Shown here: one piece after another, positions 1-24,538 of the stretch
Position numbering within the stretch: the stretch's first letter is position 1
Layout of the letters: the number at the start of each line of letters is the position of its first letter
Source: Pseudomonadota bacterium
GTDB taxonomy: Bacteria; Bdellovibrionota; FAC87; UBA2466
Direction of reading: 5' to 3'
Assembly (NCBI GenBank): GCA_043767805.1
Contig: JAYUGC010000151.1
Location: 1 to 24,538 of the forward strand
Length of the DNA: 24,538 bases
The notes under the pieces: generated by a model
What the model saw: the letters and a program-made list of their open reading frames with translations, nothing else
Told to the model about the DNA's origin: nothing
Database searches by the model: none
Program-made: the position numbers and the translations under genes

Positions 1-31
1 CCCTTTTGGTACCAAAAAGTGCCAGAGCGAG

Positions 32-913
32 TTAGCGCTTCTTTAAATTCGAGAGGGCGATGAGCGCGAGCAAGCAGATGATTAGGAATATGATGAGCAC
101 TTTGACGAGGAACCACCAGTCAAAGGCCGAGTTGCGACGAGCTTCGGAGTCCAAGGCCGCTTGCACGCCTTCCACTTCCGAGCGCTTCCCGGGAATGGAC
201 GCCTTGTCCTCGCCGCCGGCTTGATCGCCGCCCTTGGAAGCGTCCTTCTTGCCGCCGTTCCCCCCGCCGCCTCCACCGCCGGAGCCGCCTTCTTCCGCGC
301 CACCGCCACCGTCGGCTTTGCCGAACGCATTTTTTCCGCCCTGGGCGCTGTCACTTCCCGAGCTGCCATCGGCCTTTTGATTGCCGCCTTTGAAAAATCC
401 GTCGCCGCTCAAATTGCCGCCGCCGTTAAATCCGCCGCCACCGCCGCCGCCGCCTTGGGAGCCACCGCCGCCAACATTGCCTCCGCCACCGACGTTACCG
501 CCCCCACCCACATCTCCCACGGGCTTTAATTCCCGGCCCTGAGCGAGCTGGCCGGTCTTCAACTGACCATTTCCGCCGACATCGGAAGGCGCGTTCATCG
601 GGCTGCCATCGGCGAGCGCATCCGGATCTTTCAAGTCCGATCCTTGGGAGACCTGGTTCGAGCCCCCTGGATTGGCTTGTCTCTCCGCGCTGAACCACAC
701 ATTCGGCACCGGCCGTTTCGGCGTTTGCCCGATGAAGTCCACGAGCTTTTGCCGCTGCCCTTGAAGAGAACCGATCAAAGCCTGGCCGAAAACGCGATTC
801 AAAATAGGAATCGCAACGGCCGCCACCACCACGGTGACCATCAGATAATCCACGACGGACTGCCCCGATTGAGCGCGCGCACGTCGTTTCATGGGATAAA
901 TGGATGCACTCAT
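32..913 (-). CDS. Gly-rich membrane/surface protein with Flp/TadE-like prepilin N-terminus and C-terminal TM anchor
   Basis: N-terminus MKRRARAQSG|QSVVDYLMVTVVVAAVAIP: basic leader, G|Q, DY at +5/+6, then a hydrophobic helix. Long G/S/N/D-rich linker. C-terminus FDWWFLVKVLIIFLIICLLALIALSNLKKR is a TM helix plus basic tail. Alternative start ATG at 892. Confidence 0.7.
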   Translation of the reverse strand: MSASIYPMKRRARAQSGQSVVDYLMVTVVVAAVAIPILNRVFGQALIGSLQGQRQKLVDFIGQTPKRPVPNVWFSAERQANPGGSNQVSQGSDLKDPDALADGSPMNAPSDVGGNGQLKTGQLAQGRELKPVGDVGGGGNVGGGGNVGGGGSQGGGGGGGGFNGGGNLSGDGFFKGGNQKADGSSGSDSAQGGKNAFGKADGGGGAEEGGSGGGGGGGNGGKKDASKGGDQAGGEDKASIPGKRSEVEGVQAALDSEARRNSAFDWWFLVKVLIIFLIICLLALIALSNLKKR

Positions 914-9674: not shown

Positions 9675-9758
9675 TGGTGCGGCCGGAGGGACTTGAACCC
9701 CCACGGGTTTCCCCATATGGTTCTAAGCCATACGTGTCTACCATTTCACCACGGCCGC
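9675..9758 (-). tRNA. tRNA-Leu (anticodon TAG)
   Basis: Reverse complement GCGGCCG TG GTGAAATGGTAGACAC G TATGG CTTAGAA CCATA TGGGGAAACCCGT GGGGGTTCAAGTCCCTC CGGCCGC ACCA. 7-bp acceptor stem, TAG anticodon, long variable arm, GTTCAA T loop, encoded CCA, 84 nt. Confidence 0.96.
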
Positions 9759-23682: not shown

Positions 23683-24087
23683 ATGGAAATTTCGACGGAA
23701 TGCCTCAGCTGCAAAGCCCGTCTCGAAGTGACGGACGGGATGGCTCAGCACTGCGGCGAGAATCTCTTTCCTTATGCCACCGATCGCTTTTTGAAAGAGC
23801 GCTTTTTGAATCAGTGCCCCCATTGCGGAGCCGCTCATCTCTATAAGCAAAGGGACTTCAATCGTCGGCTGGGCATTGGGTTGGTAGTCGTGGGTATTTT
23901 CTTTGCGTGGTGGACGTACGGCCTATCGCTGGCCCTCGTGACCCTCATCGACTGGTGGCTCTACCGCCAAGTGGGGGACGTCGGCTGCTGCTACCAGTGC
24001 ACGACACAGTTTCGCGGCGCGGAGATAGAGCCGCTGCCCGCATTTGATTTAGAGCTCCACGATTACTATAAGAGCCGCGCTCCGTAA
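23683..24087 (+). CDS. Hypothetical Cys-rich (zinc-ribbon-like) membrane protein
   Basis: ATG 2 nt after the upstream stop. CLSC, HC, CPHCG..LYKQRDF, TM hairpin, CYQC. Confidence 0.7.
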   Translation: MEISTECLSCKARLEVTDGMAQHCGENLFPYATDRFLKERFLNQCPHCGAAHLYKQRDFNRRLGIGLVVVGIFFAWWTYGLSLALVTLIDWWLYRQVGDVGCCYQCTTQFRGAEIEPLPAFDLELHDYYKSRAP

Positions 24088-24209
24088 GAGCGTTCGCTGC
24101 CACATAGCGCCTCAAAGCCAGGAGCGCTCTGCCCCATTCGTTTGCCGAGCCGAAGATTTCCGCCGTGCTCTGTGATCCGTTTCTGATCGGGGAAGAGAGT
24201 TCGTTGCAT
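24066..24209 (-). pseudogene. Probable internally deleted Y1 (IS200-like/REP-associated-type) transposase relic
   Basis: Manual translation from ATG 24209 gives MQRTLFPDQKRITEHGGNLRLGKR. A shifted frame from 24139 reads EWGRALLALRRYVAANAL. From recall (not searched), these resemble the N- and C-terminal segments of Bdellovibrionota Y1 transposases. Confidence 0.45.
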
Positions 24210-24452
24210 CAAGGATATGAATACGTCGGTGGCGATCGCGGGGCAATAGCATTTTAGGGCAATAGGGAGCGTGTTTGTCGACGATAGAATCGACGCTGAG
24301 TGCCTTCCGACGCTGGCGCAGTGAATAGTGTCCGGCGACGTCCGCTTTCTTCTTGTGCGATGCCTTTTCCTACTGGGCTACGCTTCTAGCTTGGCCCTGC
24401 CCGACGCCTAACTGCCCTCGGACACATCAAACGGCGTACCGCTCTGATCTTC

Positions 24453-24538
24453 GTGTAGGTAGGCGGGACCCCTTGCGGGGCCCGCCCCCATTAAAACCGT
24501 ACTGGCGCTATTTACGCATACGGCTTCCTCATCGATAC
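24453..24538 (-). mobile_element. Group II intron, 3' end (domains V and VI); remainder lies beyond the window
   Basis: Minus strand reads ...TGAG GAAGCCGTATGCG-TAAATAG-CGC-CA-GTACGGTTTT (DV, 24527-24493, AGC triad, 2-nt bulge), then AAT, then GGGGGCGGG-CCCC-GCAA-GGGG-T-CCCGCCT-A-CC (DVI, GNRA loop, bulged A at 24460), then TAC(AC). 3' splice site at 24453 or 24455. Confidence 0.88.

Follow-up and report, generated by a model that had tools for sequence, protein, structure and literature searches.

Some group II introns whose proteins are devoid of an endonuclease domain home into other mobile elements, as RmInt1 does in ISRm2011-2. Classes A, C, D, E and F are given as being without the En domain (PMC3552965). 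In introns of classes IIE and IIF, which are otherwise described as IIB-like, domain V (DV) has a loop of 5 nt where a zeta' loop of 4 nt is usual (Nagy et al. 2013, PMC3753933). According to a review (PMC4424553), the consensus of the DV bulge is AY; for IIB-like introns, EBS3-IBS3 pairing predicts a fixed base at position +1, which an invariant A would fit.

The window analysed is a stretch of 24,538 nt, which is the whole contig C151 of genome G000; the assembly consists of 204 contigs, the shortest of 2063 nt. We regard it as very likely that this contig ends with the catalytic 3′ part of a group II intron that is mobile, is present in several copies and belongs to a known bacterial lineage. 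Its structure, copy number, covariation, homology, target sites and EBS1-IBS1 complementarity were observed or computed here. The last 84 bases of the window (24455-24538, minus strand) constitute the group II intron 3′ terminus and fold as first described. The sequence-only reading of this DNA had recognised the DV, domain VI (DVI) and 3′ splice site signature of a group II intron on the minus strand, and all elements that it described are present at their places: a DV hairpin with GCCGUAU pairing GUACGGU, an AGC triad and a 2-nt bulge was found at 24527-24493 and equals the minimum free energy (MFE) fold, and the GC-rich stem with its GCAA tetraloop and an unpaired A24460 beside a G-U pair corresponds to DVI. 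The features of the contig end are as follows.

24529-24538, minus strand: last codons (..Y R) of the intron-encoded protein (IEP) reading frame with its TGA stop at 24531-24529; the rest lies beyond the contig end
24527-24493, minus strand: domain V, a 35-nt hairpin (basis: MFE fold, RNAalifold, covariation and RF00029 alignment)
within 24527-24493, minus strand: lower helix of DV, 10 bp, GCCGUAU pairing GUACGGU
24525-24523, minus strand: AGC triad of DV, inside the lower helix
24504-24503, minus strand: 2-nt bulge of DV, CA
upper helix of DV, minus strand: 4 bp, GCG/CGC plus U24514.G24508, closing the pentaloop
24513-24509, minus strand: pentaloop of DV, AAAUA
24492-24490, minus strand: linker UAA between DV and DVI (basis: RNAalifold and MFE fold)
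24489-24458, minus strand: domain VI, a GC-rich stem (basis: RNAalifold and MFE fold)
24476-24473, minus strand: GCAA tetraloop of DVI
24468, minus strand: bulged U of DVI
24487 and 24461, minus strand: G.U pair of DVI adjoining the bulged A24460
24460, minus strand: bulged A above a 2-bp basal helix, branch-point candidate
24457-24455, minus strand: 3′ tail UAC
24454, minus strand: A that all copies have in common, taken here as base 1 of the 3′ exon and candidate for IBS3

The MFE fold of 24533-24455 is identical to the DV plus DVI structure, with -42.5 kcal/mol and z = -4.45, and one of 200 shuffled sequences was equally stable. The covariance-model check with Rfam RF00029 (Intron_gpII), which had been suggested together with the fold, gave a divided answer. 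All 77 model positions align to 24528-24453 with 33.8 bits (E = 2.8e-5 in a 239-nt search), and the gathering score of 40 bits is not reached. Because of this shortfall RF00029 is absent from the list of the whole-window Rfam search at gathering, which holds a tRNA alone and no intron match. The tRNA (9678-9758, minus strand; RF00005, 60.9 bits) is 81 nt long and has a long variable arm. The score with RF00029 is lowered by three features of the window's DV-DVI: its pentaloop cap, its CA bulge, and a DVI that is short and rich in GC. A sub-threshold score is typical for introns of the RF02005 type: at 12 RF02005 loci in which DV was found by our custom covariance model, the gathering score of RF00029 was reached in six, and DV-DVI of the other six introns was missed. 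The low score and the abundance of palindromic repeats in this genome would both fit hairpins that arose by chance, or an unrelated structured repeat (a REP-like element or a terminator) merely resembling DV-DVI. This explanation is weighed below against the relatives of the element.

The same 84-98 nt, 100% identical, are found at the ends of four contigs of the assembly (C151, C160, C168 and C185), and the flanks are all different. A 5′ end starting with GUGCGCC is shared by three other contig ends, over 28 nt in C86, 89 nt in C133 and 380 nt in C156. Furthermore, C156:3272-3507 matches RF02005 (group-II-D1D4-6) over the full model with 123.6 bits and E = 1e-36, the matched region being part of domain I (DI). 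The sequence-only reading had made its case dependent on a covariance-model match and on a GUGYG boundary with DI-DIV structure in adjoining sequence. What we found is the sub-threshold RF00029 match together with GUGCG, 380 nt of 5′ sequence and the RF02005 match at the partner ends; the latter lie outside the window and are tied to it by homology and site type. The 5′ and 3′ pieces were linked solely through homology and the logic of their sites, no read or contig spanning both.

Comparison of the 5′ 380 nt with 34 genomes of the family gave matches in G000 and G008 only, the latter with 76% nucleotide identity. The copy in G008 is complete and consists of an RF02005 match (104.7 bits), an ORF and a DV-DVI closely like that of the window. 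Its IEP of 458 aa matches RVT_1 (104 bits) and GIIM (23.5 bits), has no endonuclease domain and scores 294.4 bits with TIGR04416, under the cut-off of 300. When the G008 reverse transcriptase (RT) was compared with 401 genomes of the phylum, 28 genomes had matches at E ≤ 1e-40; close relatives (65-66% identity) were limited to G313, with two copies in identical surroundings, and G147, with a partial one. A search of 38 genomes of the class revealed no further close relatives. In G313 a homologous 5′ part and a homologous DV-DVI enclose an ORF. The family profile searches were run on the G008 ORF, and the G313 ORF was found by 65% protein similarity to the G008 protein. The intron in G008 (L021 1437-1445; G008:C246) starts with GGGCG and not GUGCG, has a weakened EBS1 stem and interrupts a DDE transposase ORF (L021 13-1497; Transposase_29, 50 bits); this copy is perhaps in decay. 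The 5′ piece in G000:C156 contains an extra stem-loop of 27 nt near the 5′ end of DI (L016 3243-3269), which is absent in G008 and G313.

The ORF of G008 ends with ..SPAVCR at the same TGA, 7 nt before DV, and that of the present intron with ..RPTVYR; C168:1-24, which holds 14 extra bases, extends the frame to ..SRPTVYR before the stop. The TGA just upstream of DV had been proposed to be the stop of an RT/maturase ORF, and homology to the ORF end in G008 supports this, since the 458-aa frame with RVT_1 and GIIM stops at the same TGA.

DV-DVI of this intron, of G008 and of G313 align without gaps. RNAalifold predicts 27 pairs for the three sequences; in ten of these, both partners are exchanged in one sequence or more, and none is broken. 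DV accounts for 14 pairs, five with compensatory change, and in DVI five of the 13 pairs change on both sides, again with none broken. A covariance model was built from the 3′ ends of these three introns and retrieved 34 DV-DVI matches in 40 sources. In the resulting alignment, whose fitting to the covariance model favours the structure, 96.8% of the cells pair and 22 of the 27 pairs covary (11 of 14 for DV alone). None of 500 shuffles reached the observed values, and slid controls paired to at most 47.4%. This strong covariation, the homologous DV-DVI that comes after an RT/maturase ORF in the relatives, and the RF02005 match of the partner 5′ end refute chance or an unrelated repeat as the source of the hairpins, the probability of which we consider negligible.

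RVT_1 and GIIM profile searches of the whole G000 assembly returned nothing, and an intact IEP or a full-length intron at this site was not observed. According to the simplest reading, the contig ends inside the intron: the assembler failed to resolve the repeat, at least four near-identical copies were collapsed, and their interior with the RT gene did not enter the assembly. The collapsed repeat would on the same simplest reading be about 2 kb long. The intron thereby explains the stops of C151 and at least six other contig ends and flags a retroelement whose RT gene the assembly misses.

Public sequencing runs contain further pieces of the element. In run X1 the flank has a word depth of 6.09 and the unitig with the intron end one of 34.1, word depth not being a copy number. 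Seven contig pieces from four public runs all stop being identical at 24454, as do the four copies in G000, and the flanks differ beyond; run X6 adds a further, different flank. Identical 85-nt ends with other flanks occur in metagenome runs from three studies, and two public-run contigs, from X1 and X4, continue 398 and 644 nt, respectively, further into the element past this end. A contig of run X1 joins sequence like 24300-24322 straight to the intron end (window 24322/24454), and this junction is probably another insertion site beside a paralogous repeat.

The missing interior leaves room for a different view of this particular copy, namely a 5′-truncated or ORF-less remnant of abortive retrohoming that is unable to splice. 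No interior or RT was seen in the assembly, the 5′ ends number three in G000 and the 3′ ends four, and the relative in G008 looks decayed in its 5′ end and EBS1 stem, all of which would suit a remnant. We nevertheless judge it unlikely: over 84-98 nt, the end of the ORF among them, no difference exists between the four copies (100% identity), public contigs reach 398-644 nt deeper into the element from the same end, and a site-matched 5′ end exists at C156. By analogy with the complete relatives, this copy may instead carry an intact IEP and be capable of splicing and movement.

Other repeats also occur at contig ends of G000. A REP-like palindrome (..CCTTTTGGTACCAAAA..) at window positions 1-60 is common to 13 contig ends; this second repeat family likewise interrupts the assembly, and it fits the IS200/RAYT-like genes of this genome. 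At least two further families, starting with GTTCCCCGGGGCTCATC.. and GTAACCATTCAGTAAAAAAGGTG.., were seen at contig ends (C114_L, C135_L, C75_L, C126_R, C170_R and C69_L; also C155_L, C158_R, C189_L, C76_L and others) and are probably ends of insertion sequences.

Two registers had been considered for the base of DVI, and the one ending at 24453 had been called closer to canonical. It is not favoured by our data, and we regard an end at this position as very improbable. The present intron shares the conserved sequence ...CCUACCUAC with G008 and G313, and this sequence ends at 24455 (...CCUAC); the next base differs between the three (A, A and G), and an AY terminus results in all three only with the end at 24455. 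The register found by RNAalifold comprises the G.U pair, the bulged A, a 2-bp basal helix and the UAC tail. Position 24453 and probably also 24454 are exonic, because the shared sequence of the copies ends at 24454 and the conserved CCUACCUAC at 24455. Judged from these alignments, the 3′ splice site most likely lies between 24455 and 24454. The candidate branch point A24460 is then only 5 nt away from the splice site, compared to six in Pe.th.I2 (PMC3753933).

An intron ending at 24454 (...CCUACA) would include this A and have its branch A 6 nt upstream of the end, as in the intron just named. The base at 24454 is indeed common to all copies and all public contigs, and the joined exons exceed the paralogous empty sites in C26, C86 and C102 by 1 nt in each case. 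These sites are, however, paralogues of only about 81-84% identity lying in A/T runs, and the comparison with intron-less sequence gave an ambiguous 1-nt answer on the boundary. Moreover, the termini of the three introns would become CA, CA and CG and depart from the AY consensus (PMC4424553), and a common A at +1 is what the EBS3-IBS3 requirement predicts anyway. We consider an end at 24454 a somewhat doubtful possibility. No EBS3 column was found that has U in this intron and in G008 and C in G313; this search is uninformative, since an invariant U could pair with A as well as with G. With the preferred end at 24455, the A at 24454 would be the first exonic base.

The sequence downstream of the splice site and the target pairing are listed below. 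Within the RF02005 region, the terminal loop that follows an internal loop of 13 nt was aligned and taken as EBS1; it differs in each intron. As IBS1 we took the 6 nt that precede the 5′ splice site of each intron.

24453-24137, minus strand: 3′ exon, a non-coding repeated leader followed by the start of a decayed gene, possibly IS200/RAYT-like (ATG 24207-24205, ~23 codons)
this intron: EBS1 GAUUUU; IBS1 AAUAUU, AAUAUC and AAAAUU, with 5, 5 and 6 of 6 positions paired
G008: EBS1 CAUAUA; IBS1 UAUAUG
G313: EBS1 UGACAA; IBS1 UUGUCA

The EBS1 loop covaries with the 5′ exon in G008 and G313. Full complementarity of EBS1 (6/6) to the intron's own 5′ exon was present in 7 of 13 introns of the lineage versus 9 of 156 cross pairs. 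The flanks of 5′ and 3′ exons fit together as three types of homologous site. Two of these are the arms of a quasi-palindromic AT-rich spacer (TTTCGGATTT ... AAATCCGAAG) used in opposite orientations, and the spacer is empty in C26:221-275. The 5′ exons seen (C156, C86 and C133) are A/T runs by eye. Copies of the 3′ exon leader with 81-84% identity are located at C86:73-390 and C26:277-538. The ORF that follows the leader is whole only in C86 (318-956), where it scores 22.7 bits with Y1_Tnp, against a cut-off of 23, and 21.8 bits with IS200/IS605; these scores hint at an IS200/RAYT-like gene. Rfam searches gave no match in 24050-24460, and no promoter-like or terminator-like site was found in 23900-24538. 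The sister species G004, which belongs to the same genus, has the neighbouring gene, and its similarity ends at window position 24073. A true empty allele is for this reason absent in G004, and the zone past the last gene looks like mobile DNA.

In the mechanism that we propose, the intron would be transcribed on the minus strand, and the 2′-OH of the bulged A24460 would attack the 5′ GUGCG site, located on another contig, to bring about splicing. The AGC triad, which binds metal, and the bulge would be contributed by DV. Lariat and RT/maturase would then jointly reverse-splice into DNA sites that are chosen by pairing of EBS1 (GAUUUU) with AA(A/U)AUY and by an A at +1, and in G000 the targets would be AT-rich spacers adjoining IS200/RAYT-like repeats. 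More tentatively, the element may represent a lineage with a reversed CA bulge and a branch A 5 nt from the splice site that is currently mobile and uses spacers beside RAYT/IS200 repeats, in both orientations, as a safe-haven target. The suggestion of current mobility derives from the presence of at least four identical copies here and from the metagenome runs, in which the 85-nt end recurs unchanged next to other flanks. If it holds, the identity of the DV bulge bases would be less constrained for catalysis than the AY consensus suggests, and a homing niche linked to REP/RAYT elements would be new.

Two features of DV had been pointed out as unusual by the sequence-only reading. The cap turned out to be ordinary for its kind, since a DV loop of 5 nt has been published as characteristic of classes IIE and IIF (PMC3753933) and is shared by the relatives. 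The same cap length is present in 31 of the 34 aligned DVs, with L048, L049 and L052 as exceptions; ten of the rows (L007-L015 and L024) were picked by a DV pattern that fixes the cap length and hence do not count as independent in this respect. Covariation in this alignment extends to the pair that closes the pentaloop (UG 16, GC 12, CG 2, AU 1).

The CA bulge, by contrast with the cap, proved to be rare. Among 23 relatives found by RT similarity, a set unselected for the bulge, AC occurs in 14, AA in three, AU in two, and CA, UC, UU and CC in one each, the sole CA bulge being that of G008. A genome-wide pattern scan in which the CA bulge was fixed yielded nine loci from several phyla, four of which have a YADD ORF ending 11-21 nt upstream; thus CA recurs in other lineages. 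The present intron is not among the nine: in seven the end is CCCCUAU, which marks a different lineage, and the other two have the same cap, but a DVI of more than 100 nt. A scan of metagenome contigs with the exact DV gave one locus of the long-DVI type and no copy of this intron. In L008, L014 and L024 (a Spirochaetia MAG, Desulfotruncus alcoholivorax and a metagenome contig, in this order) DV is the same or nearly so, with a UAAAUAG or UUAAUAG cap, a CA bulge and a DVI of more than 100 nt. Long DVI stems have been noted for IIF introns (PMC3753933). A full-text literature search revealed no paper pairing 'group II intron' with 'CA bulge'. Most of the unusual-looking features of the contig end are a published lineage trait, and the CA bulge and the short distance from branch to splice site are minor variants. 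As the intron was apparently active until recently, its CA bulge amounts to a modest experiment of nature on the metal-binding bulge of DV.

The intron fits an IIB-like, endonuclease-less lineage that is modelled as group-II-D1D4-6 and has published traits of classes IIE and IIF, an assignment drawn from such traits. As in the class IIE/IIF introns Pr.ae.I1, Sy.wo.I1-1 and Pe.th.I2, a 5-nt DV loop replaces the GNRA tetraloop, EBS1 is located in DId and complementary to the last 6 nt of the 5′ exon, and DVI is well structured (PMC3753933). The IEP of the nearest relative, G008, likewise has no endonuclease domain. Unlike these introns, the present one has CA and not AY in the DV bulge and a branch A 5 nt (or 6) from the splice site. 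Class IIC introns insert just after a terminator-like hairpin or attC site. At the present intron, the 5′ part matches RF02005, the 5′ exons appear by eye as A/T runs, and the scan for terminator-like sites covered 23900-24538. The known picture of group II introns is unchanged by these observations. A parallel in habit is RmInt1: the copies described here stand beside IS200/RAYT-like repeats, and the copy in G008 lies inside a DDE transposase ORF. In contrast to RmInt1, the present intron belongs to another lineage, and its target is an AT-rich spacer outside the repeat, which is occupied in both orientations.
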